64,000 nt of DNA from Myxococcota bacterium (GTDB lineage: Bacteria > Myxococcota > Kuafuiibacteriia > Kuafuiibacteriales > Kuafuiibacteriaceae): the NCBI GenBank assembly GCA_965223435.1, contig CBDCWQ010000023.1:504752-568751 (forward strand). Reading direction: 5' to 3'. Positions 10,855-43,200 of the stretch are shown here, one piece after another. The position numbers and the translations under genes were made by a program. Below the pieces are notes generated by a model, which was given only the letters and a program-made list of their open reading frames with translations, had not been told where the DNA came from and made no database searches. Positions within the stretch are counted from its first letter, which is position 1, and each line of letters opens with the position of its first letter.

Positions 10855-10861
10855 CTTTGCG

Positions 10862-11827: not shown

Positions 11828-11863
11828 CAACCCGAGCGGTCGCACCGTACCCGGTACTCCACT

Positions 11864-11947: not shown

Positions 11948-11952
11948 TCCAA

Positions 11953-25297: not shown

Positions 25298-28200
25298 CTA
25301 CGTTTTGGGTTTGTTCCGTGGGCGGGGCGGCACGGCTGGTGGCTTGAGGGGCTTGCTCACGGGTCGAGCCTCGATGGGGTCTTCATCCGGCCTGGGTTTG
25401 GGGCGACGGGAGGCCGGCTCTTTGACGCTCGGCGGGCCCGCAGGGGGAACCGGGCGGGTAGGGTGTTCGGTCTCAGTCGCCTCCGGTGGGGGGCTGAAAA
25501 GCGCACCTTGGAATCGATTGTTCCGCGTGGGGTCGAGGGCGTTGAGTTTCAAGATTTCGATCAAATCTTTGAGCGGTTTCCCCATGCTGCGAATTTCTTC
25601 GATATTGGCCAAAGAGGCTCGAAGGAGGGGGGCGAGTGTATTCTCGAACCGATCCGTTTGGCTTTTGAGTACTTTTTGAATCTCTTGGGGGGTTTTGTGC
25701 TCCAGTTCTACTTTGAGCTGGGGCTGCGCCAAGGCGCTGACCGCTTCGTCGAGACGCGCCAAGTGTGACGAAATCCAAGGCTGATCCTCACCCTCCGAAC
25801 CTCTTTGGTCTACGGCGGAGGCCAGCTGAGTGCGGATGCCATCCAGGTGTTCGCCGAGGCCGCTGAGCGTCGAGGTGACCCGGGTCACAGGGTCGTCGTC
25901 TTTTCCTCCGGACAGTTTGAGCCGCTTAAAGTCCTTTTTGATGCTGGTCCACCGGGTGTCTTCTTCTTCGCTCAAGCTTTGGCGAAGTTCTCCGAGTTTG
26001 AGCAGGTTGTGTTCGGCGCCGGTCGTCAGCGTTTGTGCTTCTCCGAGGTAGTGGTCTCGAATCAAGGCATCAAGTTCGTTTTCGTTCATGACCGCCACGA
26101 TTTTCTCCGCCAGCTTGTTCATGTTTCGATAACTCCCTTGAAGCTTAAAAGGCGGTTCGGTCCGAAAGGCATCATCCATCGACGCGGAACGGATGTACTC
26201 CGCGTTCACCTTGAGCAGCGTCTCTTGAGCCACAAACAATCGCTTGATGACCTTGATGCTTTCCTCAATCTCCAGCCTCGAGTAGTTGTGAGAAAATTCA
26301 GTTTCCGGAACATCTTCGCCTTTGGCAATGCGAATCAGAACATGCACGTCGTCAAGAGAACGGGTGGCCATCGGCGCCAACGCCGGGTTCGAGGTCAGAC
26401 AATTTTCGATGTAGCTGAGCGCAAAGAGATGATCTTGACCGTCGAGAATATCCCCTAGATTGTAAACGTCAGCACGGTTCGCCAGCATGTCGGGAATCTG
26501 AAATTTGTCGCCAGACTCCGTGTAGGGGTTGCCGGCCATGACGACGCAGAACTTTTTTCCGCGAAGGTCATAGGTACGGGTCCGGCCATTCCACACACCC
26601 TCGATTCTTCGTTGAGCATCACATAGTGAAATGAACTTTTGCAGGAGCTCGGGATTGGTATGCTGAATGTCGTCGAGATAGAGCATGACATTGTTGCCCA
26701 TCTCCAGTGCAAGATTGATCTTTTCGACCTCTTGTCTGGAAGTGGCGTTGGGTGCTTCGTCGGGGTCGAGCGAAATGACAGAATGACCCAGCGAGGGTCC
26801 ATTGACCTTCATGAACACCATGCCCAAACGCGAGGCCATGTATTCCATCAACGTCGTTTTCCCATAACCGGGCGGGGAAATGAGGAGCAGCATTCCCATC
26901 AGATCGGTGCGCTTGGTCTTTCCGCTGGCCCCCAGTTGTTTCGCGAGGTTGTCCCCGAGAAGCGGCAAGTAGACGTCGTTGATCAAGCGGTTGCGCACAA
27001 ACGACGAAAGAACCCTGGGCTTGAATTCATCGATGCGGAGCTGGTGCCGTTCCTTGTCGAGGAGTTCATGTCGTGCTTTGCGATAGGCGATAAATCCGGG
27101 CACATCGGTGTTGATAAAATCGTGGAGGCGCACCAGGAATTCATCGAGTCGTACCGTAAGCCGGCGATCTTGAATGCGGCGATGTTGGCCCAAAAGCCCC
27201 TGCACTTCGAGCTCGGTCAGCGCTGCACTTTCTTCGCGGTCGAGCTTGTTTTCTGTGAGCAAAAAGACCGCTGCTTCGAGCACCACGGCGGAGGCGGTTC
27301 GCTGTTCCTCCTCGGCTAAAGTCCCGATGAATGTGGTGACCCATGCGCGTGCGGTTTGGAGTCGAGCGAAAAGCGCACCCTCCATGGCTTTAAGGTCGGC
27401 CTCGAAGAGGGGCCGGGTGCCGCGTCGCTCGAGTTCGGCAAGAAGCTCGCGGGCTACCCGCACCGCTTCTTTGCTCGTGGTGAAGCGTGGTTGGGGTGCT
27501 GCAAGTTCTTCTACCAGATACTGACCTGCGATGTGGAGTTCGTTGTGGTTGGTTTCAATGCGCTCTTTTTCAAAAAATTGGGCAAGCGCCTGAGACAAGT
27601 CTTGAGCCAAAGCCGTTTCTTCGGGACTTTGCCCAAAAGCGGTGCGGAGGCGTGCGAAGCTCATGGCCCTTCGATGGAAGACATCGCGGGTTTGTTGGTC
27701 TTCGAAGTAGACCCAAAACAGAGCCGCCAGGGCGCGGGGCACGGGGGCAAACCGAAGGAGGCCTGCGGCTTTTCTCACCGAAAGGAGTTTCTCCAGTATT
27801 TTTGCGGTGTCCAGGTCGTGCAGGCCTCGCTCGTAGCCTTCGTCGTAGCGTTTTTCTGCGTAGCTTCGAATCAAGCCCAAAAGGGCCTCGGTGCTTTGGC
27901 TTGCTTCGTGAAGGGCCTCTATATTGAGGTTTTCGCGGCGCTTTTCGGCATCAAACAGAATGGATGCCGCCAAAAACTCGCCTCGGTAGACCTGGTCAGA
28001 CTCCGAAACCAACGGCCGGTTCCAATACGTTTTGGTCGACCGAAAGTCTTCGTCCGTGATGGACTCGTAAAAGTCTGTTCCCGTGAGGTGGAGGGCCATT
28101 TCGTCGTCCCTCGGGACCATGGTGAGCTCAAAAGCTTGGGTGTTGATGTTAAAACGATGTTTCCCCAGCTTGATGACCTGGTCGCCATCTTCGAACAAGT

Positions 28201-30787
28201 CCAGTTTGTCTCGCAGGTTGCGTAGTGCGTTTTGTTTGGCCGACTTGAGCTGAGAAAGAAGATCGTCTGCTTTGACGCTGTCGCCCAGCTCCAAGAGGCG
28301 CTCCGCCAACTGGCGCAATTTTAAGACCATGGCGTCCGATGCAAAATACGCGTTGAGCTCGTCTTCTTCTTTGAACGCTCGGGTGCGCCTGGCGACGCCC
28401 TCCAGGATTCGCCCCCCCGCGGTGATCATGTTTTGCGCCCTGCGCTGTCGATCATCGACCAGTTGTTGCTTTTTGCTTTCGAGGGCCTCGTATATTTCTT
28501 CTCTTTTTTGTGCCAGTTCCAGCAAGAACTCGTCAAACTCGCCGAAGCGACCTTCAAGCTCTTCGAGTTGGACCATCAGTCGGGAGAGTTCTTCGTCACA
28601 TTTTTCTGGGCTGTCTGCCATGGCCACAGCGCTCGAAACCGCCTGGGCCAAAAGTTTAAATTGAGCGCCGAACTCCGCGGTGCCTTCTCGTTTGCTGAGC
28701 TCCTTTTTCTTGGAAACCAGGGTTGCGCGGACTCGGTTGAGTTGACCAAAAACCTCGGAAATGCTCTCGAGAATTTGCGTGCGATGGGTGGTGTCTTCCA
28801 CGTTGAGACCAGACACCACCTCGGACAGAAGGTTGAGCCCATCGGTGAGTCGCGAAAGCTCCTGGTCAAAGTTTTCGGCTTCGCTCGCTTTGTCTACTTT
28901 CTCGATGCGCTCCAAAAGCTGAGAGATTTCGCCCAAGAGGGGGCCAAAAGCCTCGCCGGTCAAAAGAAAGTCGACACAGTGTTTGCTGACCTGGTCGAAT
29001 TCTTTGACCACTTCGGCTTCGAGGGCGTCGATGGCCTCGATATCGATGTACCTCACTTCGCGAAGGGTGATGAGATGCCCCCGATGTTGCCTGAGGCTGG
29101 TCATGGCTCCCAGAAAATCCGTGACCGAACGCCAATCTTCGGGCCTCGAGTCTTGCAGCAGTCGCTCTTTGTCCTCTTTCGCTTCGGTGAGGGCCTCTTG
29201 TGCCTTTCGTTTGAGCGCTTCGACTTTTTCGAATTCGTCTAAAATGAGTTCGCCATTTTTGCGAATCAGGTCGATGGTTTCCCCGAGATTCTCTACTTCA
29301 TCGTTGTCGAGCCAGTAGTAGGCATCGCGGGCGCGCACGGTCGCCGCCAGAAGGTCTTCGTAGCTTTGACGAGAGGGCGTTTTGGTCTCGATGAGTCGGC
29401 GCATGCCGTACGCATCCGAAATGCCGCGGACCAAATCCCGGTTTCCCACTTTACCCAGGTACGAGTTGTCGGTGGGCACCTCGGCGGCGTGTTCATCGGA
29501 GACAAACGGCGTCTGCCAAATCTGCATGGGATGAACACGCGTTGGTTCATCTGAGGCCGATCGAAAGACGAGCATATTTCCGTCTTCGAAAAGCGTAAAT
29601 CCATGACACGCAATGGGGTTTTGCACTTCTTTTCGTATCAAGTTGTAGGGAAGCAAGAGGTATCGGCCGTCGTTTTGGTGATAGAAGACGTAAAGCACAT
29701 CTTCGCCGTTCGGGGAGCGAATGGACTGCTTGAATTGGAATTCACGGGTATCGCCCCCAAAAAGCTTGGTGTCTCCGTCCTGAAGGAAGTACCCACCCGG
29801 AAACACGATGCCGTGATCCTCGGGGAGTTGCACGCATGCTTGCCCGATGGCATCGATGCGCGTGGCCTTTTTGGTTCGGGTATTGAACACCAAATAACGC
29901 CAGGTCTCTTCTTGGTAGGGAAGGACCTTGAGAAGAATGAGTCCTCCGACCTTGGCGTAGTGAAACTCGCCGTCATCGAGAGATTGGCGCGGATCCTCTA
30001 CGGGCTCTCGGTAGATGCCTTGTCCGTCTTCGGTGTTGTTTTCTATTTTGATGGTGAGATCGCCGCCCACCGTTTCAACAAAACACTCGTCGAGTATGGA
30101 TACGTGGGGGTGGCGGCCGGATACATGGTCTTCTCGCGTGGTCGGTGTCCATTCGAAGTCGTGTGAAGGGGGAAAGATGTGATCTTCGTCGCCCCGGTTG
30201 TCGAGGTATTTGACTTGGTCGTTGACGTCGACGGCAAAGCGAAAAGCCTTGATGTCGGTGATTGCGCGGCCAATCTGAAAAACGAGGAGGAGCCTCCCCT
30301 CCGTTCTTCGAACCTGTATCAGTTTGGAATCTTTGTAATAGCGGTAGAGTTCCTTGAAGTCTTTTTGAAACCCGCTGTCCGCAAGGAGACCGGCCACCGA
30401 ATCTTCCGGTGCATCTTTTATGACGAAGCTTCCGTCTTCGTGTGCACGAAAACTGTGCAAGCTGAAGACGTCGGCGACACGCGTTTCGGTCTTGAGGCCG
30501 ATGTATACGTTGTAGCCAAAAAGCAGCGTGCCGCCGATGTTGACGATGTCTCGGGGAACGCAGTTGTTTTCGGTGCGCACCCGCTCGTTGCCCAGGACCG
30601 TAAGCTCGGTTCCGCCAAAGGTTTCTTTTCGCTTCTTGTTGAGGGCATCTACTTTTTTTGCCAAGCGTGCGCCTTCTTCAAGCAAGCGCCGATGGAGGAC
30701 CTCGTAGCTTCCGCCCTCGAGTGCACCATGTTTGCCGGAGTTTTCTTCGGCGGGGTTCTCGACGTTTGCGTCGCTGGCCATGCTCAA
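25298..30787 (-). CDS. Giant (1829 aa) AAA+ ATPase of the MoxR/dynein-related AAA_5 type. It has a large N-terminal region, central coiled coils, and a Pro/Lys-rich C-terminal tail. It is co-oriented downstream of the flotillin gene.
   Basis: Walker A is LLLISPPGYGKTTLMEY and Walker B is NVMLYLDDIQH; sensor/arginine regions follow (KFCVVMAGNPYTESG; RADVYNLGD). Long heptad-like Glu/Lys stretches occupy the middle. The C-terminus reads RPVPPAGPPSVKEPASRRPKPRPDEDPIEARPVSKPLKPPAVPPRPRNKPKT. Confidence 0.75.
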   Translation of the reverse strand: MSMASDANVENPAEENSGKHGALEGGSYEVLHRRLLEEGARLAKKVDALNKKRKETFGGTELTVLGNERVRTENNCVPRDIVNIGGTLLFGYNVYIGLKTETRVADVFSLHSFRAHEDGSFVIKDAPEDSVAGLLADSGFQKDFKELYRYYKDSKLIQVRRTEGRLLLVFQIGRAITDIKAFRFAVDVNDQVKYLDNRGDEDHIFPPSHDFEWTPTTREDHVSGRHPHVSILDECFVETVGGDLTIKIENNTEDGQGIYREPVEDPRQSLDDGEFHYAKVGGLILLKVLPYQEETWRYLVFNTRTKKATRIDAIGQACVQLPEDHGIVFPGGYFLQDGDTKLFGGDTREFQFKQSIRSPNGEDVLYVFYHQNDGRYLLLPYNLIRKEVQNPIACHGFTLFEDGNMLVFRSASDEPTRVHPMQIWQTPFVSDEHAAEVPTDNSYLGKVGNRDLVRGISDAYGMRRLIETKTPSRQSYEDLLAATVRARDAYYWLDNDEVENLGETIDLIRKNGELILDEFEKVEALKRKAQEALTEAKEDKERLLQDSRPEDWRSVTDFLGAMTSLRQHRGHLITLREVRYIDIEAIDALEAEVVKEFDQVSKHCVDFLLTGEAFGPLLGEISQLLERIEKVDKASEAENFDQELSRLTDGLNLLSEVVSGLNVEDTTHRTQILESISEVFGQLNRVRATLVSKKKELSKREGTAEFGAQFKLLAQAVSSAVAMADSPEKCDEELSRLMVQLEELEGRFGEFDEFLLELAQKREEIYEALESKKQQLVDDRQRRAQNMITAGGRILEGVARRTRAFKEEDELNAYFASDAMVLKLRQLAERLLELGDSVKADDLLSQLKSAKQNALRNLRDKLDLFEDGDQVIKLGKHRFNINTQAFELTMVPRDDEMALHLTGTDFYESITDEDFRSTKTYWNRPLVSESDQVYRGEFLAASILFDAEKRRENLNIEALHEASQSTEALLGLIRSYAEKRYDEGYERGLHDLDTAKILEKLLSVRKAAGLLRFAPVPRALAALFWVYFEDQQTRDVFHRRAMSFARLRTAFGQSPEETALAQDLSQALAQFFEKERIETNHNELHIAGQYLVEELAAPQPRFTTSKEAVRVARELLAELERRGTRPLFEADLKAMEGALFARLQTARAWVTTFIGTLAEEEQRTASAVVLEAAVFLLTENKLDREESAALTELEVQGLLGQHRRIQDRRLTVRLDEFLVRLHDFINTDVPGFIAYRKARHELLDKERHQLRIDEFKPRVLSSFVRNRLINDVYLPLLGDNLAKQLGASGKTKRTDLMGMLLLISPPGYGKTTLMEYMASRLGMVFMKVNGPSLGHSVISLDPDEAPNATSRQEVEKINLALEMGNNVMLYLDDIQHTNPELLQKFISLCDAQRRIEGVWNGRTRTYDLRGKKFCVVMAGNPYTESGDKFQIPDMLANRADVYNLGDILDGQDHLFALSYIENCLTSNPALAPMATRSLDDVHVLIRIAKGEDVPETEFSHNYSRLEIEESIKVIKRLFVAQETLLKVNAEYIRSASMDDAFRTEPPFKLQGSYRNMNKLAEKIVAVMNENELDALIRDHYLGEAQTLTTGAEHNLLKLGELRQSLSEEEDTRWTSIKKDFKRLKLSGGKDDDPVTRVTSTLSGLGEHLDGIRTQLASAVDQRGSEGEDQPWISSHLARLDEAVSALAQPQLKVELEHKTPQEIQKVLKSQTDRFENTLAPLLRASLANIEEIRSMGKPLKDLIEILKLNALDPTRNNRFQGALFSPPPEATETEHPTRPVPPAGPPSVKEPASRRPKPRPDEDPIEARPVSKPLKPPAVPPRPRNKPKT

Positions 30788-30958
30788 ACCTCTTCTTTTG
30801 CTGCTGTCGTGGATGGCTGCCCGAAAGGGGCGGCAAGAGAAGAGGCCGCGGTGGTCTTAAACACGAACCCTTGACCGCTCATCCTCTTCCTCCTGCCATC
30901 GGCTGAGGCCGTCCGCCCTTGTTGAATCGCTTTGGGCCTCTTGCAAAAGATCCTCAGA

Positions 30959-33043
30959 TCAATTGCTGGTCTTATCTACGCCGAGTTCTTTCGCTTTGTT
31001 CAGCAAGTTCTCGAGCTTCGTCTTCATGGGTTCGTCTGCGTTGAGCATCATCTTGCCCAAAAAGGCGGAGACACTCAGATTCTGGAGATCCTTGGTCGAG
31101 ATGTTGGTGTTTTGCAAGGTTTGCAGAAGCTCTTCCGGTAGACTGGCCTGTCCGTTGAGGTAGTCTCCGAGGAGGTTTTGCACCTTGGTGCTGTTGTCGA
31201 AGAAACCGTCCACCGACTGTCCCACCGACACCGCGTTGATGAAGCGTTCGAAGAATTGACCGTCACCACCAACGATGTTGATTTTGGCTTGGTCAAATGC
31301 CTCTTTGAGGATTTGAGCGCGCGAATCCGCGATGTCGCGACGAACATTGAGGGTCGCAAGCTCGACTTCTTTGTCCTTTTCCAGCCGGATCCGGAACTCC
31401 TCGTGCTCTCGTCCTACACCATCAAGAGCCTTCATGGCGTCTGCCTTTTTCTTGAGGCCGATGGCCTCTGCGGACAGCTTCTTTTCAATCGCGATCGCCT
31501 CGGCGAGGCCCATTTTCTCGAGCGCGATGGCTTCTGCTTCACGCACCCGCGCTTGAGCGAGCCCCTGTTGTTCTTCGCCTCGGGCGTTGGCTTCGAGTTT
31601 TTCTTGAATGACCTTGGCTTGGGCTGTGCCCTCTTTTTCGATGGCAACCGCATCGGCTTCTTTGACCCGCACCTTGGCCAGGCCGGTGGCAGCTTCCTCG
31701 GCCTGAACGCCTTCGGCGAGTCGAATTTTTGCTTTGGCCTTTCGGTCGGAAGCCTCAAGCTCCGCGTCTGCGAGGGTCAGTTTTTCTTTGGCGGCGAACA
31801 CTGCAACTTGTTGTTGCGCTTCGGCAGCCTTGATCTCTTTCACAAGACCCTCTTGGGCTTCGGCTTCGGCACCGGTGACGGCCACTTCCTTGTTTCGTTT
31901 GGCTTCAGCGATTGCGCGTAAGTCTTTGATGCGCTCTTCTTCTTCGGCCACGGTCTTTTCGACTGCAATGCGGCCCCGAATGACGTCTGCGATGGCCTTC
32001 TTTTCGACCTCGACCTCTTTTTCTTTGGCGATGCGGTTGAGCTCCACTTCGCGCTCGCGGGTGATTTGCTCGAGGGCGCGGTCTTTTTCGACACGCTCTG
32101 TTTCTACGGCGATGACACGCTCTTTGTTCTTGGCCGCAACCGCGACTTGCCGGTCTTTGGCCTCTTCGCTTACTTTGACTTCTTCTTCGGCCTTAAGCTG
32201 TGCCACCTGCGCCTTTCGGTATTCCTCGGCCTGGACTTTTTTGGTCTCGGCTTGCTCCCGCGCCTGCATGGTGGCGATTTCTCGGTGCTGTTTTGCGATG
32301 GCGTCAGCCTCTTGCCTTTTGAGCGCCAACACTGCTTCTTCGGCTTCCACGTCTTGCTTGGTGATGGCCTTTCGTTCCGCTTGCCTGAGCTCGTTGGTCT
32401 GCACGTTCTGGGTTGCGGTCAGTTCGGTGATTTTGCGAATGCCTTGGGCGTCGAGGATGTTGTCCTTGTCGAGGGCTTCAACGGGGGTTTGCTCGAGGTA
32501 GTCGATGGCCGCATCTTCGAGTGAGTATCCGTTCAGGTTCTCGCCAATCTCTCGAATGATTTGGTCACGAAAGTCGTCTCGCTGGGTGTACAGCTCGACA
32601 AAGTCAAGTTGCTTGCCAACGGTCTTGAGGGCTTCAGAGAATTTCGCCTGAAAAAGCTCTTCCAGTGTGTCTTGGTCCGACGCGCGGGCGCAGCCCACCT
32701 GTTGGGCCACTTTCAACACGTGCTCTTTGGCTTTGTTGACTTTCACAAAGAAGGTGACCTTGATGTCCGCCCGGATGTTGTCCTTACAGATGAGGCCTTC
32801 TTTCCCTCGGCGATCGATTTCGATGGTCTTGACCGAAATATCCATCACTTCTGCCCGATGGAAGATGGGAAGAACCAAGCCGCCCGTGAAGGTCACGTTG
32901 GGTTCTTTTCGGACCTTGTTGATGATCAGTGCTCGACCCTGCTCAACCTTTCGGTAGGATCGGACAAAGAGGATGGCGAACCCAACGGCCATCATGCTCA
33001 ACATAATACCGGTTATCACGAGTGGGATGACATATTGTGGCAT
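30959..33043 (-). CDS. Flotillin-family SPFH/band-7 protein (YqiK/FloT-like), 694 aa
   Basis: The N-terminus has a TM anchor (VIPLVITGIMLSMMAVGFAILFV), then an SPFH domain (QGRALIINKV...VLPIFHRAEVMDISVKTIEI...GLICKDNIRADIKVTFFV). A very long Glu/Ala/Lys-rich coiled coil follows (EA repeats: AEEAVLALKRQEADAIAKQHRE...), ending in the flotillin C-terminal region. Confidence 0.85.
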   Translation of the reverse strand: MPQYVIPLVITGIMLSMMAVGFAILFVRSYRKVEQGRALIINKVRKEPNVTFTGGLVLPIFHRAEVMDISVKTIEIDRRGKEGLICKDNIRADIKVTFFVKVNKAKEHVLKVAQQVGCARASDQDTLEELFQAKFSEALKTVGKQLDFVELYTQRDDFRDQIIREIGENLNGYSLEDAAIDYLEQTPVEALDKDNILDAQGIRKITELTATQNVQTNELRQAERKAITKQDVEAEEAVLALKRQEADAIAKQHREIATMQAREQAETKKVQAEEYRKAQVAQLKAEEEVKVSEEAKDRQVAVAAKNKERVIAVETERVEKDRALEQITREREVELNRIAKEKEVEVEKKAIADVIRGRIAVEKTVAEEEERIKDLRAIAEAKRNKEVAVTGAEAEAQEGLVKEIKAAEAQQQVAVFAAKEKLTLADAELEASDRKAKAKIRLAEGVQAEEAATGLAKVRVKEADAVAIEKEGTAQAKVIQEKLEANARGEEQQGLAQARVREAEAIALEKMGLAEAIAIEKKLSAEAIGLKKKADAMKALDGVGREHEEFRIRLEKDKEVELATLNVRRDIADSRAQILKEAFDQAKINIVGGDGQFFERFINAVSVGQSVDGFFDNSTKVQNLLGDYLNGQASLPEELLQTLQNTNISTKDLQNLSVSAFLGKMMLNADEPMKTKLENLLNKAKELGVDKTSN

Positions 33044-33181
33044 CTCAGAAACTTCCTTTCTTCAGCCCACCACGTCGGTTAAGAGATGAACTGTTTTCTT
33101 GCGGGCGTAGGTCCCGGGTTGGCGTGCCCAACACGCCCCGAAAACGTGTTGAGAACAGCCCGTATGATGGACGGTAGGTCA

Positions 33182-34138
33182 TCATGAGGGCTCCCGCTCG
33201 CTTTTTGGGAGACTTCGTCTTCCGGCGATCTCGTGCGAGGCTTGAGGCGCTGCGCCCGTCTGGACGCTCTTGCCTTCTTGCTCTTGGACAAGGGGCTCAA
33301 TGCGAAAGATATCCCGCGTGCGATCAAATGCGATGACCAATGCTTGGTCACCCTTTTTGAGAGTGTTGGTTTTGTCGTGTCGAACTTGAACCAGCATTTC
33401 GGAACTGCCTTCTCCGACGATGGCCTGGCCAAAGCGTCCATCTACACTCCCCGTTGTGATTCGGCAGGTTTTTCCGACGAGGTCTTGTAGACGGTCGGCA
33501 TCGAAGGTGGCGAAGAGCGGCCCGATGGGGTGGGTGATGAGCGAGGTCAGGGGGATGGCACTGGCCGCGGCTCCGAAGAATACACTGCCCTTGAGCAGCC
33601 ACTCGGGAACCATGCCCTCGGCCAGGGGCGTAAGAAAATGCATGCCAAAGTACGAGACCAGCCACGCGCTGAGTGCGAGCATGCTGAAGACGATCGTCAC
33701 CGGCGCCTTTCGCAGCCCGAGCAGACTGAGAAGCCCAAATGCGGAAAGACCTTGATGCGCGGCCTCGATGGCGTTGCCAGCGCCCTCTGCCGCCCCTTCG
33801 GCGATCCCTTCCGCAGCGCCCTCCGCAAGCCCTTCGGCGGCGCCTTCCGCAAGCCCTTCCGCAGCCCCTTCTGCAAGTCCTTCCGCGGCCCCTTCCGCAA
33901 ACCCCTCGGCGAGTCCTTCGGCAGCGCCTTCAGCGATGCCCTCGGCTGCACCGTCCGCGAGCCCGTGGCCCATGCCGTCGACCGAGTGAAGAAAATCCAT
34001 GTCAAGGGCCCCAACGAGAACAAACACCCAATACACAAAGGCCAGCGCCAAGAAGCCGGTAAAAACGACGGTGGGGAAGGCCACGATGTTGTGCAAAAAT
34101 TCACTCATCTCAATTGGGCACCCGCGGCGCCCGGCCAC
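33182..34138 (-). CDS. NfeD/YqiJ-like membrane protein (flotillin partner) with an internal (AEGx)n tandem repeat and a C-terminal OB-fold. The likely start is ATG 34108 (MSEFLHN...).
   Basis: TM helices are present (IVAFPTVVFTGFLALAFVYWVFVLVGAL; VTIVFSMLALSAWLVSYFG). The C-terminal NfeD beta-barrel reads GKTCRITTGSVDGRFGQAIV...LVQVRHD...LKKGDQALVIAFD. The gene sits 138 bp upstream of the flotillin gene on the same strand, matching the yqiJ-yqiK arrangement. Confidence 0.75.
   Translation of the reverse strand: MAGRRGCPIEMSEFLHNIVAFPTVVFTGFLALAFVYWVFVLVGALDMDFLHSVDGMGHGLADGAAEGIAEGAAEGLAEGFAEGAAEGLAEGAAEGLAEGAAEGLAEGAAEGIAEGAAEGAGNAIEAAHQGLSAFGLLSLLGLRKAPVTIVFSMLALSAWLVSYFGMHFLTPLAEGMVPEWLLKGSVFFGAAASAIPLTSLITHPIGPLFATFDADRLQDLVGKTCRITTGSVDGRFGQAIVGEGSSEMLVQVRHDKTNTLKKGDQALVIAFDRTRDIFRIEPLVQEQEGKSVQTGAAPQASHEIAGRRSLPKSEREPS
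33770..33960. repeat. About 15 tandem copies of a 12-nt unit encoding AEG(L/I/A) within the NfeD-like gene, on the minus coding strand
   Basis: The encoded protein stretch is DGAAEGIAEGAAEGLAEGFAEGAAEGLAEGAAEGLAEGAAEGLAEGAAEGIAEGAAEGAG. The DNA repeats units gccccttccgca / agcccttccgca. Three other-frame ORFs (33697..34104, 33739..34062, 33768..33989) are artefacts of this repeat. Confidence 0.7.
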
Positions 34139-34351
34139 GGTGCTTCCTGCGATGCGGTTTCTATCATGAGAAGCACCAAAACGAGTTGGTCTAGATCTCT
34201 TCGCCCAAAATCGGTCAGGCCCGGCGCTTTTTCGGCGTTTTCTCGGTGACCCTGGCAGAAAACCCTAGCATGGGGCGGGCCTACACCTTGAGGCCGTCCA
34301 AGAAGGGAAGCGCGGCGTGGATTCCAGGCCCGGGCATCCGATAGACTTCTG

Positions 34352-37264
34352 GTGTTGGGGAATGACGGTACGCCCACCCTGCTGGTGGTGGGGCAAGAGG
34401 CATCGACCGAGGAGGTTCTTCGGGCCCTTGGGGCACTCTTGGACCTTGAGGTGCATTGTTTTTTGAGCGGCGAGGGGGTTCTTGACGCGTGGCCCATCGG
34501 GCGCCCGGCGGTGTTGGTGACCGAGTTTTTCCTCCCCGGTCTGGACGCACCCCGGCTTCTTCAGGCGGTGGGGCGGTCTTTCGGCAACAAAACGATCATT
34601 TTAACCCGAACGCAGCCCGCTTTTTCGCCGACGGCCCGGACTCGACTTGGCTTTGATGCGGTCGTTACGCGTCAGGGGGCTTGGCCATCCGCCTTGGCGG
34701 CGAGGCTCATCGATTGGGGACACCGCCCCTTGGATGCACGTGCCCAGGCGGTGCTTGCGGCCATGGGCTCTGAAGATCGCGGTTTCCGTTTTGTGGCGGA
34801 CGCGCTCATTGAAGATCGGTTGCCGCCGAAGACGGCGGCCTGGGCGCTTCGCTACTTGGTGGCTGTTTTTCCTCCGGACCGCGTTCTTGGGGTTCTCGAG
34901 GGGGTTCTTCGCCAAGAGGCCGAACCTCGTGTGTTTGAGGTCGCGAAGACGGCGCTTGGGTTGGCGGTGGGGCTCGGGGGTGCAGGTCTCGAGTTGGTCG
35001 AACTTTTGGCGATGTCCTCCCATGCGGAGCCTGCGCTTCGGGTGCGCGCCATGAGGCACCTTGCGGATCACGCGCCGCCGGGGTGGGCGCTTTCGGTGTT
35101 CGAGCATGGGCTTGGCTCGTCCGATAAAGCGGTGCGTCATGGCGCCGCCGAGGCCGCGCTTGAGAGTGCGCGGCGTGTTCCCGATTTGGGGGCAGCCACC
35201 GTGGATATGCTCCTCGAAGCCACTCGAGTGCCCACCCAGGTCCGGGTGGCGGTGCTCGACGACGTGCTTTCGACTCGGGCGTGGGCCGAGGCCCAACCGG
35301 TGCTTGAGGCCATGGCGACCAAGTCAGAAGAGGCTGTGGCTTCGCGCGCACGCGCGCTCCTTCAAGAGGTCTCGGCCATTGACGAAAAAGAGCTGGCGGC
35401 TTTGGCCGAGGATAGGACCAAGCCTGAAACGCTTCGGGTGGACGCGCTCCGTCTGCTTTTTCGCCGCGTGCGAGGGGAGGGTCTCTCGGTGTATCTGGCC
35501 TCCTTCAGAGGCCATCCCACAGAACGGCTCTGGCAGGTTGCGATGGCCCATTCCCTGACGGCTTCGCCCCGGGATCTGGAAGACGCCATCGAGCATGTGG
35601 CCGCCCAAAGCGAGGCGCAGCAACGCTTTTTGCTCCTTTCGGCTTTGGGGCTTGGTGCCCGGGGGGTGCCTGCGCTTTTGGCGCTGGCGCGATGCGAGGC
35701 GCTCGAAACCGCCGTTCGGGCGATGGCGGTCCGGGGTTTGGGGGTCGCCGGCGACGTGCCCCGGGCTCTCGCCCTTTTGGATGAGATCATTTGTTCATCC
35801 GTTTTGATGCTCGGACGTGCGGCCTTGATGTCGGCCGCACAGCTTGGGCGCGCCGGTGTGCCGGTCTTGGTTCGGGCTGCGCGGCGCGCGGTTTTTCCCG
35901 TGCTGCGCGCGGAGGCGCTGGTCCATGTTTTTGGCGCGGGCGACGAAAAGCGGCTGGTGGCGGCCGTCAATCACGCGAGTCGGGATCCGCATCCCCGGGT
36001 ACGATCGGTCGCGGTGCGTCTCGCGTTTGAGCGAAACGGCGCAAAGTCGAGGTCCCTTCTTGAGAAGGTGGGTCGTTCGGGCCGCCTTCCGATGCAGTGG
36101 GCGGCGCTCGAGGGCGTTTATGCGTTGGGCGAAGCGGGCTTTGGCCTTCTTTTGGACGTCGCGAAGGGTGAATCGCTTGGCTTCGACAAGCGGGTCCAAA
36201 GCGCTGCCCTCAAGAGGCTTTTTCGCTTTTTCGCGGAGGAGCGTGCGGCCATCGTCGACGCGGTCGGTCCCGAGACGGTGCGGGCGCTCGAGGAGGTTTC
36301 GAGCGCGCCTGACGAGGTTCCTCGGCCATCGCCCGAGGGCGCTCGGGGTGCGCCCCCCGAGGACGGTCCGCATGCGGCCGATGAAGAAAAAAGGGAAGCG
36401 GAACCCGAAGCCTGGGAGGTTGCGCCCACCCGCCCCCAAAAGCCGGCGTCCGCCGAGGGTTTTGAAGCGCATTCGGACCTGACGATTCCGGACATCGCCA
36501 AGAGGCCCCGTCGTGGCCAAAGCGATGATGGCGATTCGGAAAAAACGGTGGTTGAAGCATCGAGGCTGAGGCAGATTCGAGCCAGCCTTGCGTCCCGCAA
36601 AATCGACGCGCGGCGCGCGCAAAAGGCGCTGGAGGCGGCGCTTCGCATGGGACCGGACGGATTTCGGGGCGTGGCGTCCTTGGCCGATTCTGAGCGGGTT
36701 CCGGTCGAAATCCGTATCCAGGCGATTCGGCACCTGGGCGCCGACTTTCCCACGCGCCGGGTCCTACCGGTGCTCGAGCGAGGTCTCGAGTCGGGCGAAG
36801 GCGCGGTGCAACACGCGGCGCTCAGGGCCCTGATGCTCCGCGAGGACGCGATGCGCGCGCCGGTCGAAGCCCTGGCCACTTCGGCGTCCCCATCCTCGGT
36901 TCGGGTGAGAGCCATCCGATACCTGGCGTCACGGTGGTCGCGGCCGGACATCAACGCCATGCTGGAGAAGCTTCTCTTAGACCCGGAAGCCAACGTGCGG
37001 CGCACCGCACTCGAGTGCATGTTCTCATCGCTTCGGTACCTGCCTCCGGATCGGGTGGAGCAAGCGCTGATCAATCTTCTCCGCGAACACCGCTCCCAAG
37101 ATGTGAAGATTTCCGCAGCCAAGGCCCTGGCCGCCTTTGGTTCTCAGGCTGCCATCGATGCGCTCGAAGGCTTTGTGGGGATCTTCGCTGAGCCGGCGCT
37201 TCGAGATGCCGCCAGCGAGGCCATCCGGTGTATCCAGGCCCGCGCCCAAAAATCATCGCCCTAG
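34352..37264 (+). CDS. HEAT/PBS-lyase repeat protein (970 aa) with an N-terminal degenerate receiver-like (pseudo-REC) domain
   Basis: The N-terminal roughly 120 aa resemble a CheY-like fold (TLLVVGQEAS...AVLVTEFFLPGLDAPRLL...TIILTRTQP...GFDAVVTRQ), but the acidic pocket (DD) and the phospho-Asp (here Glu) are absent. Numerous HEAT-like repeats follow (VRVRAMRHLADHAP; VRHGAAEAALES; VRVAVLDDVLS; IRIQAIRHLGADFP; VRVRAIRYLASRW; VRRTALECMFS; KISAAKALAAFG). Confidence 0.7.
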   Translation: MLGNDGTPTLLVVGQEASTEEVLRALGALLDLEVHCFLSGEGVLDAWPIGRPAVLVTEFFLPGLDAPRLLQAVGRSFGNKTIILTRTQPAFSPTARTRLGFDAVVTRQGAWPSALAARLIDWGHRPLDARAQAVLAAMGSEDRGFRFVADALIEDRLPPKTAAWALRYLVAVFPPDRVLGVLEGVLRQEAEPRVFEVAKTALGLAVGLGGAGLELVELLAMSSHAEPALRVRAMRHLADHAPPGWALSVFEHGLGSSDKAVRHGAAEAALESARRVPDLGAATVDMLLEATRVPTQVRVAVLDDVLSTRAWAEAQPVLEAMATKSEEAVASRARALLQEVSAIDEKELAALAEDRTKPETLRVDALRLLFRRVRGEGLSVYLASFRGHPTERLWQVAMAHSLTASPRDLEDAIEHVAAQSEAQQRFLLLSALGLGARGVPALLALARCEALETAVRAMAVRGLGVAGDVPRALALLDEIICSSVLMLGRAALMSAAQLGRAGVPVLVRAARRAVFPVLRAEALVHVFGAGDEKRLVAAVNHASRDPHPRVRSVAVRLAFERNGAKSRSLLEKVGRSGRLPMQWAALEGVYALGEAGFGLLLDVAKGESLGFDKRVQSAALKRLFRFFAEERAAIVDAVGPETVRALEEVSSAPDEVPRPSPEGARGAPPEDGPHAADEEKREAEPEAWEVAPTRPQKPASAEGFEAHSDLTIPDIAKRPRRGQSDDGDSEKTVVEASRLRQIRASLASRKIDARRAQKALEAALRMGPDGFRGVASLADSERVPVEIRIQAIRHLGADFPTRRVLPVLERGLESGEGAVQHAALRALMLREDAMRAPVEALATSASPSSVRVRAIRYLASRWSRPDINAMLEKLLLDPEANVRRTALECMFSSLRYLPPDRVEQALINLLREHRSQDVKISAAKALAAFGSQAAIDALEGFVGIFAEPALRDAASEAIRCIQARAQKSSP

Positions 37265-40200
37265 GGGCGCGCGAGAAAGTCGATGTGGGCCGTAACGACA
37301 ACGGGTCCAAGACCCCTGAATCGAAAATTGAGGGCTTGATTGTCGCGGAGTTCTGCGAGTTCTGGTCCCGAAAATGCGCCAACGAGCTTACCGTTCTTGT
37401 ACAGGAGAAGCTCGTAGATGGCGCGAAAGTCGATGCGCTCGAGATCTCTTAGCTTAATAGGAGTGGAATGACCTCTCAGCGTCGCGGTATCGAACGCTAT
37501 CGTCGCGGACTGAAGGGGGACATGGTGTACGTCTAGGGTGTCTACATCGAACTGAGGGCGATCGACCTTCGGTTGGTCGAATACCTGCTGAGCGGCCCCC
37601 AGAGCCAGCCTTGGGTTGAGGAGACCAGGCACATCAGGATCGGTGGATGGTCGCATGGTTGCGCGCAGTACCGCCGCGATTTCGTGGGGTAGAGGGTCGT
37701 AATCTTGTTCCAAAGCTTCAAGCGCAAGGAGCGAAGCAACTGCAGATAAGTAGGGTGGGGTGACCGAAGGCGCTTCAAGTGGTTCAACCGCTGGAAAGTC
37801 TTTCGGAGAAATTTGACCACGGCGGACGACGGCCGAGGTGGCGATATCTACCCGAGCTCCATAGTTTGAGGAGGGTGAACGACGGGCTTCTGGATGATGA
37901 GACATGGCGCTGACACCGCCGACCACGAGTAGATTGTCATGGCGACTGCGTTCAAGCATGGCGGGGAAAATTCGATGGTCGGTCGCGGCCAAGTCGAGTC
38001 CCTCTTCTCCCCACCAAGCTTCAGGGTATCCACCCGCGGCGGTGTTCACAACCAAGATGCCCGCTGATCGGGCGCGATCAAGTATCATGTGGAGCAGAGA
38101 CTCGGCTTGCACAATTTGATCGTCCTGTTCATCGCTCTCGCCTTGTTGGGCGAACGTCGTTCTGCTCAGCGAAATGACATAGACGGGCTCTCCATCCGGT
38201 TCACCCCGATTGAACTTCTCTCGCAAGACAACCGCACCCAAAAGGGCCCGGGGTATAAGCGCATGTTCAGACTCTGTGTTTATGGGTACTCCGATCACGC
38301 CCAGCGTGCCTGGATCTACACTGGCAAATGGGGCTGCAAGTGTGAGTTCCTCTAAGAGAGCTTCGGTCATGTTCTCGCCGTGGGTTTCACCGGTGCGGTC
38401 GTCGATCACGCGATCGAAATCGTCCACAATGGCGACGACGGCCGTTGGTTTCTTGCCGCCTGCATATCCGTGGATGCGGCGAACCATAGAGGCAGGCAGG
38501 TTTTCGAGTTTGGCCAGGAGGTCAGTGGATGTGACCGGCTTCGTGACGGGTCTTTGTTCGGCAATGTGGGGAGTGACCGGACCCGAAAGACCCATGATGT
38601 GATTCTCTGCGGCCTTGCGGTCGAAGTCGCTTCGGATGGCGAGTTCGACAACAAAAAGCCAGGGGCGGCGGAAGCTTTCGGGTAGGGATTCGGTGATGGT
38701 GTTTACTTTGCGCCACAGGGCATGATTTTGGATGAAGGCCTCGAGCACCGCGGACCGGGGGTGCGTGGTGTTGAGTGTGTACACTTCCCAGAGGCTTCCC
38801 TCGGTGGGAGTGAGGAAGCCGACTTGGCCGGTGAGGGGGGACTCGAGGCCGGTCCAGTCGGCGCGTAGGTAGTAGATCTGTTGATTCTCGAACCGGATGT
38901 GGGGGCCGGTGAGGGGGTTCTTGATGTGGGTGGCCGTGTAGATGGGGAGCGTACGGAGGGCGGTTTCGTCACGAAGATAGGTGGCTAGAGGCGGAGCCAG
39001 GGTGGCTTGGGCGTCGATGACGCCTTGGGGGGTCCAAAAAGCGCTGGAGGGTATGTCGCTGCCGATGAACATCGTCTCGAGACCGGTGTCTACTTCGGTG
39101 CCCAAGCTGCCAAGATGACCGAGGGCGCTGCTTCCGGCCAATGCCGCGACGACCAGTTCCTTGGGAAGGCTGACGAGATCGTCGACCAGTTTGACCGCGC
39201 TGGCGGTCGTCCTGGACAAGGATTTGCCTCGGCCAAGGACAAGGGTGCTTCCGGCGTTATCTGGGGAGATATTTTCGGAGGGGGTTTGATCGCCGATTCG
39301 TCGGACTTGGTCACGGATAGAGGCGTCATCGACCGATTGCGTAAAAACTTTGTCGTCCGAATTCGCTTCAATGGGGACGGACTCGGTGTACACCATGGGC
39401 GCTTGACGTCTTTTGGTCGAAGGCTTCTGCTTCAGATCCAATTCTGATAATGGGTCGTTTGCGATTTCTTCGACCACCTGTCCGAGGAGATCACCCAGTA
39501 CGCTCTCGACCGAATCGTTTTTGGGTTTGAACACATCGAGTTCGTCGGGGTTGATTTCCATGGTGACGAGCACGTCGTCCGTTTCGGCCAAAAACTCGAA
39601 AAGCGTTTTGTTTTCTACCTTGCTCCGTATCCAGGGCGAGTCATGCAAAACGAGTGCGTCTTTGAGAGAAGGGGTCGTGTGCTGTTTGGCCGCAAGTACT
39701 TTCAGAATATCGAGCCCAAGATTACGTAGTTCGGGTGGCGCTCCGGCCCAGCTTTCGGCCCACTCCGCCGGATAGAAAACTTGACCGTCTTCGGTGCGGA
39801 AGATGTATTCGATGTAGTCCCCCGGCCTGCCCTTTTTCTTCTTGTAGATGGCGATCGCTACCTGTGCAGGGCCGGTCATGGTGCCAAATGATACCAGTAT
39901 ATTCTTGTGATCCGCATCGAATTTGGCCTTGAGCCCGACGGTGGTCACCGGAAGCCGCATCGGGTCAAGCTTTGCAACTTCCTCGTTTTCTCTCTTGTCC
40001 ATGTCAGAGATTCGTTCTTCTAGCGCCTCAATTACTTGAGAAAGACCTTTGGATGACGCGCCTTCCAGTTCGTTTACGAACTCGCGCGTGACGGCCGAAT
40101 GAACAGTCAGGTCTTTTGTTGCCCCTTCTGGGAGGCTGCCGAGAAACTCTCTGAACAATTGCTTAACGTCGACCCCGCTCAACGAGGACGTATAGCGTTC

Positions 40201-43200
40201 GGGGCTCAGGTTTCTCAAGTAGGCGATGAAAGCCAAGATGAGCGGACGAAGCTTTTCGAACTCTTGGGTGCGAAGGGATCGAAGAATGTAGCGGCAGTCG
40301 ATATCAAACGCATGAAACGGGAAGGCTCGGAGCTCCCGTGCCGTCAGTCCTTTACGCAAGGTTCGCGCGTTGCGCGTGATGATCGAAATATTTTCGAGGC
40401 GTCCCTCCTGGGTGAGAACATCGGTGCGAGGGTCGCCGAGTCGAGCTTCGTTTAGAATGAATGGGTCTTGGCTACAGTAGAAAATGAGAAGGTCGTACGC
40501 CAGAAGTTGAGCGTCTGTTTCGAGTGGGATGGTTCCGGCAATGGGATCAAAGTCTAAAGCTCGAATTTTGGGCGGTGGTTCCGCGGTAGGTGTGGCCCCG
40601 GAGGCGACCACCAGCATATCCACCACACCCCCTGGTTCGCGGCGCTCAAGAATGCTCGTATTCGCGCCGGCCTCAACAATGATGACCGATTCATGGGGGG
40701 GATAAATGCCCCGCCATAGACCGACCGCGGCGCGGGCGGCGTCAACCGATTCAAAAGCCAGACTTGGGCTCCCGTTCGCCACTGGACGAAATCCGGGGCG
40801 AACGCAAAGGATCCAATAGCCATTCACTTTTTGTGTTGAATACAATTCTCGAGACGGATCACAGTGCGCTTCGAGGGTTGACCCTTCGGGCATCGGTGCC
40901 GTGGGCACCAAACCAGACAGGGCACTGGCGAGCCATGGTGTCTGCGACAGCAAGGTCAAAAGAATCTCGTCGGTGAACTGCGCTCCGGCCTGGCCCAGCA
41001 AGGGGATGATGGAAACGCCGTTAATAAACGAGAAACCGAAGGTGGGTTGGTAAAAACGCGCAGGGTTTTGGGCTTCACCCTGATTTTCATCCGTGACCAA
41101 AAAACCGAAGGCCTCTTCCCCCTCCGCTTCCTCCAGTCGAGCCAGACCCAGTCCGTTCACCAAGGCTTTCTGAATCTCGGAAGGGATCTGGCCCTCTCGA
41201 AGAATTCGGTGAAGCGAGGCGGTGCCTAGACCCGACTGGTCCGCGGCGCGCGGCAGATTGCCGCCCGCATAGGTGTGGACGAAACGCCGAAAGGCGGATA
41301 CATTGGCAGCAAACGCATCATCTTGCGGGAGGGGCAGGTTTTGTAGCTGAACGCCTTGGACCTCTATTCGAATCTCATTTTCCGCCAGCGCGGCCCGAAA
41401 AAAGACCGATGACCGACGCCAGTACTGAGAAGCAGACGGATTGAGTGCATGAACCACATTCAGATAGGGTACCCTAAAAAGAACTGGGCCTTCGCCCTCG
41501 TGCGCCAGGATTTCCTGTACGCGAAGCTTGTAGCCTTGGCGAAGCCGGTCTTGGATTTCGGCCAATGGGGCATCCTCGTCGGTGTGCGAAGGCAAAGGCA
41601 TAGGGTGGCCACAGCTCAAGCAAGTTGCTTCTTTACCCCCCTCGACGAAGAATTCGCTCTGACCCCAGCGAAGGAGCGCCCGCAGTTCTTGCAAGACTTG
41701 ATAGGGAGCAAGGTATCCTTCTTGTTTGAGCGAAGCCTCAAAAGCCCCATCGGTGCCAATTCGGGCGGTGCGGAGACGGGCGAAAAGCCCAGACACGGCC
41801 TCGCAGGAAATGCCTAAGCCCTTCTCCATATCGGCGCGGGAGCCCGGGAGGCTCCACGGCGCCTCACACAACGTCAGGAGCTCTCGGTCGGTGGCAGAAA
41901 TCCAGTCGTTTTTGGACCGCGCATAGGTGTCTAACCACTCGGCCGGGGGCACCAAACTCGCCGCTTGGGCCAGTGCGAAACGCAGAAACACCAGGCGGTG
42001 AAAGGTCGTATCAAAATCACCGCCAAAAACGCGAGACACAAGCAGCGTGCGGACGGTGTCGTAGTACAGTGACAACAAGTTTTGTTCTAGGAGCAAAAAC
42101 GCCTTGTCGGCTTGCTCGGGTGCACCAAGAGCCCTGAAACCCGAACGATCTTGGGGTGTAGAGACCAAGGCCACGGGGAGGCCGTCTACACCAAAGACGC
42201 CGTTCGGAAAGATGGCCATAAGTGAAGCCGCCAGTACATCAAAAGCCGCTTCTTCTCGCGCTGCGGGCGTCCATGAAGCAAGAAGGTCCAGCGCCATTTC
42301 TTCTTGTCGAGAATCAATAGGGGCCAATGCTCGTCGGGCCAAGACCTCCATGGACAATCTTGCCCAACGCCGGCCATCGCGAACAGCCACAAAGTGATCG
42401 CGCCAGGCAGAAAAAGACGGTGCCTGCATCAAATCGGGAAACGATTCTAAAGACGAGGCGAGCGACGCCCGATCGGCCCGGCCCTCTTCCTCACTCCGCC
42501 GATCGCGGGATGCCCATGAAGCAAAGCCTTCTTGATCTTGGGCTCGTCGACGATCGAGTTCTGCGAGAAGGGCCTCCGCAAGCCCGACCTCTCCGACCTT
42601 TGCCGCGAATAGGGCACACATCGCGTATGTCTCGGGGCGGTCCGCGAGGTCTTTTTTTCCGTCCGCAAACACCGCCTGAATGGGAGAGAGTCCGGAACCA
42701 TTTGCGCAAAGTTCAAGGAGACGCACCTTTAAGTCTTCAGCCCTACCTAAGAAATCTTCGCCTGCGAGAGATGAGGCTGTGGCCCTGGACGCAAGACTCC
42801 ATGCGAAATACGCCAGGATGTTGTCGTCGATTTTGGCCATGGGGAGGTATTGCACCGGATAAGCGGCAAGGCCTGCACGAAAAAGCCCCGAAACCGGGCC
42901 GGAACCCTCGACGAATAGGACGGTTTGGAGGCTCTGTAGCCCCCGTATCAAGTCTGTCTTCGCATCGTCTTGGCCCTCTGCCGCGAGGAGCAGACCCGCG
43001 AGAGCATAGAGCACCAGCATCTGGGACCCTGTGTCCCGAAGCGCGTTCAGAGGTTGACCGGTCTTGGAATGAATCGCAACCGGAAACCCAAAAGCGCCTG
43101 GTCCTTCCATGTTCGGTCGAAAAGCTGACGCACGGAGCGGCGTGAGCCACGCCGTAGCTTGTGCGATGTCTCCTTGACCAAGAGCGACAAGCGACGCCAG

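Follow-up and report, generated by a model that had tools for sequence, protein, structure and literature searches.

Our analysis showed that a YqiJ-like small membrane protein, a flotillin-like SPFH protein and a giant AAA+ ATPase are encoded side by side in the window (the whole 64,000-nucleotide stretch of Myxococcota DNA analysed here), and that homologous loci of other bacteria keep the same three genes together. On balance, the trio appears to be a membrane-maintenance cassette, the products of which probably form one complex: the ATPase would be an ATP-driven remodeller of the flotillin/YqiJ assembly, with a role in membrane stress. Bacterial flotillin assemblies are usually viewed as passive scaffolds; the cassette ties flotillin near-obligately to a conserved motor in six phyla.

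The layout given in the preliminary description was reproduced. The minus strand carries one open reading frame of 1829 aa (25298-30787), one of 694 aa (30959-33043) and one of 318 aa (33182-34138), separated from each other by 171 and 138 bp. The gene upstream of the trio (34352-37264, plus strand) is divergent and encodes HEAT repeats (HEAT_2, E 1.4e-21). The ATPase gene probably starts at ATG 30781, and an identical database protein (P0001) has 1827 aa. The probable start of the small gene is ATG 34108 (308 aa), and its orthologues all open with M..FL...FPT. The features are collected in Table 1. No Rfam match was found at the locus.

Table 1. Features of the three-gene locus (window coordinates; residue numbers refer to the encoded protein)
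Feature	Coordinates	Strand	Basis
Giant cytoplasmic ATPase, 1827 aa	25298..30781	-	Pfam DUF3686 + DUF7902 + AAA_5/AAA
Disordered Pro/Lys/Arg-rich C-terminal tail, res. 1750-1827, lineage-specific	25301..25534	-	pLDDT <50, composition
Single AAA+ module, res. ~1290-1585; beta-hairpin ahead of sensor 1	26027..26914	-	
Small beta domain (res. 869-907) and helical domain (res. 934-1176), before the ATPase module	27254..28177	-	AF2, pLDDT mostly 80-97
Long helical/coiled-coil region, res. 430-862, includes Pfam DUF7902	28196..29494	-	AF2, Pfam
N-terminal beta-propeller, res. 61-423, core of Pfam DUF3686	29513..30601	-	AF2, Foldseek
Flotillin-ATPase intergenic gap	30782..30958	-	without terminator-like site
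YqiK-type SPFH/flotillin-like scaffold protein, 694 aa	30959..33043	-	Band_7, BLASTP, hhalign, TM scan
SPFH/Band_7 domain of the flotillin-like protein, res. 32-178	32510..32950	-	Pfam PF01145, E 1.2e-12
YqiJ-like gene-flotillin intergenic gap	33044..33181	-	without terminator-like site
YqiJ/YuaF-like (DUF1449/NfeD-type) small membrane protein, 308 aa	33182..34108	-	family alignment, hhalign, TM scan
12-nt tandem repeat, ~11 copies; encodes (A-E-G-x)n low-complexity linker, TM1-TM2	33778..33936	-	Tandem Repeats Finder
Divergent intergenic region, cassette/HEAT-repeat gene; presumed promoter region	34109..34351	.	sequence

The homologues of the giant ATPase number more than 6572 (E<1e-10), and the best 120 of them share 54-65% identity with it over 89-100% of the query. 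The TM scan found no transmembrane segment in it. Its N-terminal 450 aa (DUF3686, E 7e-209), on which the preliminary description was silent, form a strongly conserved propeller. This region is all-beta in the AF2 model (pLDDT ~90), its Foldseek matches are WD40 and 6-bladed propellers, and its mean identity across the family is 63%. The long coiled coils described earlier are present in the AF2 model as helices of 20-58 residues, and DUF7902 was matched at E 7e-26. The Pro/Lys-rich tail was also described earlier. The last 80 aa indeed contain 29% Pro and 19% K/R, but such a tail is lineage-specific rather than a family feature, since only 22% of 120 homologues have a tail with more than 12% Pro and the column identity is 10%. 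The layout of a propeller with a long helical arm bears a superficial likeness to eukaryotic coat and IFT proteins. Kinship with protocoatomer proteins was considered but is not claimed, as the Foldseek matches of the N-terminal 1200 aa to IFT-A, Nup, clathrin and dynein reached a TM of just 0.04-0.13, too weak for such a relationship.

The AAA+ module is the best-conserved part of the giant ATPase (76%). Pfam AAA_5 matched residues 1300-1423 with 34 bits against a cut-off of 22, in agreement with the embedded AAA_5 module proposed before. Its motifs are Walker A (G1305-YGK1308-TT), Walker B (D1370-D1371), sensor-1 N1418, the Arg finger R1436 and a putative sensor-2 R1552. Both the Walker A sequence PPGYGKTT and the Walker B sequence LYLDDIQH were invariant in alignments of 10 and 96 sequences. 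When the catalytic residues were checked, K1308, D1370-D1371, N1418 and R1436 were invariant among the 10 sequences and invariant or at least 90% conserved among the 96. From these conserved motif residues, the ATPase is predicted to be a catalytically competent, working motor. The structural neighbours of the module are the remodelling ATPases CbbQ and NorQ, dynein and midasin, and the similarity to MoxR, dynein and midasin, in sequence as well as in structure, bears out the MoxR/dynein type assigned to the core earlier. A PDB sequence search with the ATPase returned AAA matches at the P-loop level only.

The Walker B motif is D-D, not the usual D-E, and hydrolysis could be slow or regulated. 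The same DD variant is found in DnaA and is compatible with hydrolysis. The MoxR family (CbbQ, NorQ, RavA) consists of stand-alone proteins of ~300 aa, usually paired with a VWA protein and carrying a DE Walker B. In contrast, the AAA+ module here is embedded at 1290-1585 of 1827 aa, and clustering of flanking ORFs in 82 loci revealed no conserved VWA partner gene. A non-conserved VWA gene does occur close to the M. stipitatus locus, encoded on the other strand.

In databases the giant protein is named 'DNA repair ATPase', 'MoxR-like ATPase' or 'AAA family ATPase'. Taken literally, the first of these names (also worded 'ATPase involved in DNA repair') would make it a repair enzyme whose flotillin neighbourhood is incidental, and weak RuvB P-loop matches point the same way. 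In Hymenobacter and Dokdonia the operon has a divergent LexA-family regulator, which may be counted on this side too. We consider this reading extremely improbable. The RuvB likeness is limited to ~45 residues at the P-loop, with 19-20 bits against cut-offs of 282-299, and neither Pfam nor the AF2 model nor fold searches revealed a nuclease, helicase or DNA-binding domain. Furthermore, obligate linkage to two membrane proteins is unlike incidental placement, and the literature searched gives the name no support. The public name, carried by thousands of these proteins, is unsupported and probably misleading.

The two smaller proteins were identified by sub-region scans and profile-profile comparison, because full-length Pfam and NCBIfam scans were insufficient. 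In the flotillin-like protein, a transmembrane segment (residues 9-27) and the SPFH domain are followed by a long helical region rich in Ala and Glu; the C-terminal region is conserved. Band_7 was matched with 48.6 bits (cut-off 23.6) when the N-terminal 252 aa were scanned alone, whereas the full-length scan gave no match. Comparison with E. coli YqiK (BLASTP 1e-34; hhalign 99.9%, spanning only residues 19-464) likewise supported the flotillin identity proposed in the preliminary description. The protein is longer than YqiK (694 versus 553 aa) and differs from it in the Pfam Flot domain (PF15975): no match was obtained at E<=1 in residues 229-615, while the YqiK control matched at 6.4e-41.

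The small protein was confirmed as NfeD/YqiJ-like by comparing its family with E. coli YqiJ (hhalign 93.9%, E 1.5e-7). It has an N-terminal transmembrane segment, a variable acidic linker, two further hydrophobic segments and a conserved C-terminal region; the TM scan gave two to three transmembrane segments. In the family alignment (35 sequences) the N-terminus and a C-terminal block are conserved, and this block aligns by hhalign, at the sequence level only, with the OB-fold region of YqiJ. The window protein did not directly match Pfam YqiJ_N (PF21001) or YqiJ_OB (PF07290), both of which were matched by the E. coli YqiJ control; its YqiJ membership is thus drawn from the profile-profile match. 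YqiJ_N was matched by 2 of the 35 orthologues (best E 8.3e-5), and the Hymenobacter orthologue carries the NCBI name 'DUF1449 family protein'. The linker between TM1 and TM2 differs among orthologues in length and sequence. Matches to Yae1_N and FliH in full-length Pfam/NCBIfam scans were rejected as spurious, reflecting coiled-coil and low-complexity bias and, in the small protein, this linker. A PDB sequence search returned nothing for the small protein or the flotillin.

To describe the distribution of the trio, 85 homologous loci were fetched. The whole trio was present in the same order in 76 of them, the small gene being located ahead of flotillin with an HMM of its family; of the other nine, seven end too near a contig edge and two are true exceptions. 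A flotillin gene lies directly upstream of the ATPase gene and co-directional with it in 79 of 82 loci, the exceptions being L071, where upstream DNA is lacking, L073, where no flotillin was found, and L013, with only a fragment 6.4 kb away. The window flotillin is 43-61% identical to the gene at this position in other loci. The cassette occurs in Myxococcota, Actinomycetota, Gammaproteobacteria, Planctomycetota, Bacteroidota and Deinococcota, and across loci the identity of the flotillin to its window counterpart correlates with that of the ATPase (r=0.68), which points to co-inheritance. Flank gene clusters were counted only if confirmed by Pfam, because greedy ORF clustering gave antisense artefacts in high-GC loci.

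These comparative data favour transcription of the trio as one operon. The gap between flotillin and ATPase has a median of 80 bp among orthologous loci, and the two genes overlap by 4 bp in 11 loci. It is rather improbable that the genes are conserved neighbours which act and are transcribed independently, from promoters in the 138- and 171-bp gaps. Such gaps are long enough for promoters, and the flotillin-ATPase gap reaches 200-460 bp in ~11 other loci; YqiJ-YqiK pairs also work without the ATPase in E. coli and Shewanella. Nevertheless, independent genes would hardly account for order and orientation kept in 76 loci across phyla or for the overlapping pairs, and no terminator-like sites were found in the two window gaps, where the scan is uninformative. 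It is equally uninformative for the divergent region, in which no sigma-70-type consensus was found.

The first two genes are homologous to those of E. coli YqiJ-YqiK, Shewanella SO1376-SO1377 and B. subtilis YuaF-FloT, with the same order and tight linkage. Those operons, however, stop after the flotillin and have no ATPase; in Shewanella a terminator comes next. The three-gene association itself is already known from a computational study by Ravi et al. (mSystems 2024, PMC11237479; bioRxiv 2020), whose operon (CesT/Tir-PspA + YqiJ/YuaF + Band-7/flotillin + beta-propeller-coiled-coil-AAA+) contains the same three proteins with the same architectures and order. They noted that 'abbreviated operons ... 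more widely distributed' exist, and their independent analysis had come to the same contextual reading. Their account is one paragraph, without structure, catalytic-site analysis, synteny counts or experiments. The full form has CesT-like, PspA and PLD genes, which the window does not have; because no PspA or DUF2170 homologue was found within the 64 kb, the window holds the abbreviated form. The preliminary description called the system uncharacterised. This holds for experiments, as the literature searched contained no experimental work on the ATPase family (DUF3686, PF12458, 'DNA repair ATPase'), nor on it together with flotillin, SPFH, PspA or pQBR103, and a P. aeruginosa SPFH survey does not include the trio system; it does not hold for the association.

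Of 27 gammaproteobacterial loci, 17 have CesT-like and PspA genes directly ahead of the trio, as do pQBR103 and a Hymenobacter plasmid (Bacteroidota); rhomboid protease and PLD genes lie downstream in ~10 loci. These extensions suggest the handling of membrane stress rather than DNA repair or phage defence. They also raise the alternative that the ATPase serves PspA, the bacterial ESCRT-III, as a Vps4-like partner, disassembling or recycling PspA polymers at damaged membrane, with flotillin and YqiJ only as a recruiting platform. The AAA+ associations of PspA were discussed as ESCRT-like by Ravi et al. (PMC11237479), and in many taxa the cassette is co-operonic with PspA, a member of the ESCRT-III superfamily; it is plausible that an ATPase would recycle such a membrane-bound polymer. 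We regard this alternative as unlikely. The Myxococcota and Actinomycetota loci have no PspA, nor does the window; Vps4 belongs to another AAA+ clade, and the window ATPase has no MIT domain.

The suggestion in the preliminary description that the trio is possibly a defence system was not supported. An anti-phage or abortive-infection system, in which the ATPase would sense infection and the membrane proteins would be the effectors, is very improbable. In its favour, defence systems commonly contain large NTPases with repeat sensors, the distribution is patchy, megaplasmids such as pQBR103 carry the cassette, and in some Gammaproteobacteria the cassette is followed by a gene of the PLD family. 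However, the best match in PADLOC-DB 2.0 was to mad8 at E 0.0025, confined to the P-loop, with no match for the flotillin or the small protein; homologues were absent from 50,697 phage records and from IMG/VR contigs. The identity among the best 120 homologues is unlike that of fast-evolving defence genes, and the neighbour genes in the window are of housekeeping type, with no defence island or mobile element.

For a membrane-maintenance cassette, we propose the following mechanism. The flotillin-like protein, held by its single N-terminal TM anchor, would oligomerise at the cytoplasmic side of the inner membrane to give a scaffold or cage, and the YqiJ-like protein, with three TM segments, would be its NfeD-type membrane partner. 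The soluble 1827-aa ATPase may join this assembly via its beta-propeller and long helical arm, with its single MoxR/dynein-type AAA+ module as the probable site of oligomerisation. ATP hydrolysis would then remodel the flotillin assembly or its clients, by assembling, opening, disassembling or extracting them, so that envelope or membrane stress could be handled; the window has the short form, without the PspA, rhomboid and PLD genes that extend the system elsewhere. The topology is in line with a complex: no TM segment in the ATPase, one in the flotillin and two to three in the small protein. We infer the physical interaction, the oligomeric state, the ATPase substrate and the stress role by guilt by association. 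Several points speak against the remodeller reading: L013 and L073 hold the ATPase without an adjacent flotillin, the window is without PspA, no VWA partner is conserved, and the Walker B is DD.

SPFH cages are known to pair with AAA+ machines, as in HflK/C with FtsH and prohibitin with the m-AAA protease. In both cases an SPFH scaffold is functionally coupled to an AAA+ ATPase at the inner membrane, which serves as an analogy for how the cassette might operate. FtsH is a membrane-anchored protease of the classical AAA type, whereas the window ATPase is soluble, without a protease domain, of MoxR/dynein type and about three times larger. A bolder idea, which we put forward as a tentative possibility, is that the giant protein is the first dedicated, non-proteolytic AAA+ remodeller of the bacterial flotillin cage, a hexameric MoxR/dynein-type motor, borne on the propeller and helical arm, that would open, close or recycle flotillin/NfeD domes on the membrane. 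If this is true, flotillin microdomains would be actively driven, ATP-dependent structures, not passive scaffolds. The cassette offers a handle on active flotillin remodelling and on its tie to the PspA/ESCRT-III membrane-repair response, and tractable carriers include Myxococcus, Streptomyces, Proteus mirabilis and the Pseudomonas fluorescens SBW25 plasmid pQBR103.

The gene arrangement proposed in the preliminary description, an NfeD/YqiJ-like gene, a flotillin gene and a giant AAA+ ATPase gene in the same orientation, is real, and the three probably form one operon. The three open reading frames were recovered exactly where they had been placed, with gaps of 171 and 138 bp, and a divergent HEAT-repeat gene lies upstream of them (see the table). 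No terminator-like site was found in either of the two gaps. Two start codons should be moved: ATG 30781 gives an ATPase of 1827 aa, the length and start of an identical database protein, and ATG 34108 gives a small membrane protein of 308 aa, where the alignment with its orthologues begins. The window genes around the trio are unrelated to it. Directly past the HEAT gene lies a 3222-aa reading frame with no Pfam match at E ≤ 0.001, possibly encoding a giant protein of unknown type.

Features of the window and of related loci (residues refer to the 1827-aa version of the giant ATPase)
Feature	Position	Strand	Basis or remark
Giant AAA+ ATPase gene	25298-30787	-	1829 aa before start correction
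Flotillin-like gene	30959-33043	-	694 aa
Small YqiJ-like membrane protein gene	33182-34138	-	318 aa before start correction
12-nt tandem repeat	33778-33936		within the small protein gene
HEAT-repeat gene	34352-37264		
3222-aa reading frame	37261-46929	-	
tRNA Leu-TAA	7580-7661	+	window, upstream; unrelated to the trio
tRNA Met-CAT	10781-10855	+	window, upstream; unrelated to the trio
tRNA Leu-CAG	11863-11951	+	window, upstream; unrelated to the trio
ATPase, N-terminal helix	res. 25-55		AF2
ATPase, DUF3686 ("ATPase involved in DNA repair")	res. 40-489		Pfam, E = 7e-209
ATPase, all-beta region of about 6-7 blades, resembling WD40-type and 6-bladed propellers	res. 61-423		AF2, fold search
ATPase, long helices, including DUF7902	res. 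430-862		Pfam, AF2
ATPase, small beta domain	res. 869-907		AF2
ATPase, helical domain	res. 934-1176		AF2
ATPase, single AAA+ module	res. about 1290-1585		Pfam, AF2
ATPase, C-terminal helical region	res. 1586-1749		AF2
ATPase, disordered tail	res. 1750-1827		AF2
DUF2170-PspA-YqiJ-like-flotillin-ATPase-rhomboid-PLD operon, Gammaproteobacteria	2376-13452		locus L035; also in locus L038
pQBR103 locus	85112-97641		L084, NC_009444.1; PQBR_RS00460-00470
LexA-family regulator, Hymenobacter plasmid	1577-2362		L085, NZ_CP010056.1; HTH and S24 peptidase

The small protein has no direct Pfam match. When an alignment of 35 orthologues was compared with E. coli YqiJ by profile-profile search, a match of 93.9% (E = 1.5e-7) was obtained, which spans TM2, TM3 and the C-terminal OB-fold region. 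Two orthologues matched Pfam YqiJ_N, and the Hymenobacter orthologue is annotated by NCBI as DUF1449, the YqiJ family. The TM1-TM2 linker is encoded by about 11 copies of the tandem repeat, giving (AEGx)n, and its length is hypervariable among orthologues. False matches to Yae1_N and FliH were due to this linker.

The 694-aa protein has a single N-terminal TM segment. A full-length Pfam scan gave no match, and the Band_7/SPFH domain (E = 1.2e-12) was found only when the N-terminal 252 aa were scanned alone. Homology to E. coli YqiK was established by BLASTP (1e-34) and hhalign (99.9% over residues 19-464). The Pfam Flot domain, which YqiK matches at 6e-41, was not detected in the 694-aa protein. 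By sequence, these two results identify it as a flotillin-like protein of the YqiK type whose C-terminal part has diverged. Several orthologues carry the database name "hypothetical protein", and coiled-coil bias probably impairs the automatic annotation of this subfamily.

The giant ATPase was modelled twice with AF2 from 96-sequence alignments (pLDDT 86 and 79), and no TM segment was found in it. The AAA+ module is its best-conserved part (76% mean identity). The Walker motifs recognized in the preliminary description held up. The Walker A lysine K1308, the Walker B pair D1370-D1371, the sensor-1 residue N1418 and the Arg finger R1436 are invariant in one family alignment and invariant or at least 90% conserved in the 96-sequence alignment; R1552, the putative sensor 2, is likewise invariant. 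The sequence just before and around the P-loop resembles classical AAA, and no conserved VWA partner gene was found near the ATPase loci. The Pro/Lys-rich tail described earlier is present; it is lineage-specific and has the lowest mean identity (10%). The database name of DUF3686 is the sole argument for a DNA repair protein, and we regard this reading as extremely improbable.

The ATPase family is large. More than 6572 homologues were found at E < 1e-10, the best 120 of which were 54-65% identical with 89-100% of the query covered. The propeller domain alone retrieved 781 representatives of 50%-identity clusters, of which the full-length ones have 1590-2036 aa. Synteny was analysed in 80 loci from a scan with one genome per species and five further loci, with trio partners sought by tblastn and family HMM. 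In 79 of 82 loci the flotillin gene was the immediate upstream neighbour of the ATPase gene on the same strand, and the full trio was present in 76 of 85. The median flotillin-ATPase gap was 80 bp, with a 4-bp overlap in 11 loci, and the identities of both proteins to those of the window co-vary (r = 0.68). That the trio genes are independent of one another is improbable. Contig ends truncate seven of the nine loci without a full trio; the other two are true exceptions. A Labilithrix MAG carries the ATPase gene without the flotillin/YqiJ pair, none being found within 7 kb. A Myxococcales MAG has no adjacent pair; part of a flotillin gene lies about 6.4 kb upstream of the ATPase gene, perhaps separated from it by an insertion or belonging to a second paralogue.

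The scan found the cassette in Myxococcota, Actinomycetota, Gammaproteobacteria and Planctomycetota; plasmid-borne cassettes also occur in Bacteroidota and Deinococcota. DUF2170 (YjfI, CesT-like) and PspA/IM30 genes precede the trio in 17 of 27 gammaproteobacterial loci, and a rhomboid protease and/or PLD-family gene follows it in about 10 loci. On pQBR103, the trio is preceded by PspA and rhomboid genes and joined to a yjfK/L/M/C-like polyamine module (DUF2491, DUF350, DUF1190 and a glutathionylspermidine-synthase-like gene), also upstream. The Hymenobacter plasmid has the order divergent LexA-like regulator, Tir-type chaperone, PspA, DUF1449, flotillin, ATPase. An example from Dokdonia in Ravi et al. 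(mSystems 2024, PMC11237479) has the same divergent arrangement, a hint that control in Bacteroidota is inducible by damage or stress. The window contains none of these additional genes. Exactly this system was already described by Ravi et al., including a PLD gene added in some Proteobacteria and "abbreviated operons" with only flotillin, the YqiJ/YuaF protein and sometimes the ATPase. The window cassette is thus a further member of a cassette known from comparative genomics; no experimental work on the ATPase turned up in our literature search.

The gene identities, the trio synteny and the conserved motifs support the earlier interpretation overall. In the most likely reading, taken with moderate confidence, the ATPase would use ATP to remodel the flotillin/YqiJ membrane assembly or its clients in a membrane-stress role. 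This reading draws mainly on the near-obligate linkage to flotillin, the soluble nature of the ATPase, its intact and strongly conserved motor, and the PspA, rhomboid and PLD genes seen at other loci. The PspA genes could instead point to a Vps4-like action of the ATPase on PspA, but this is unlikely, as PspA is absent from most loci. Phage defence, raised as a possibility in the preliminary description, is highly improbable, since no PADLOC, phage or viral matches were obtained.

Experimentally tractable carriers of the system include Myxococcus, Streptomyces, Proteus mirabilis and P. fluorescens SBW25 with pQBR103. Some 1.8-4 Mb PLSDB "plasmid" records with ATPase homologues resemble chromosomes or chromids. 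Homologues of 41-48% identity in the plasmid collection come from Proteus mirabilis (H4/H5), Vibrio campbellii (H10) and Halomonas (H12), which are genetically tractable.
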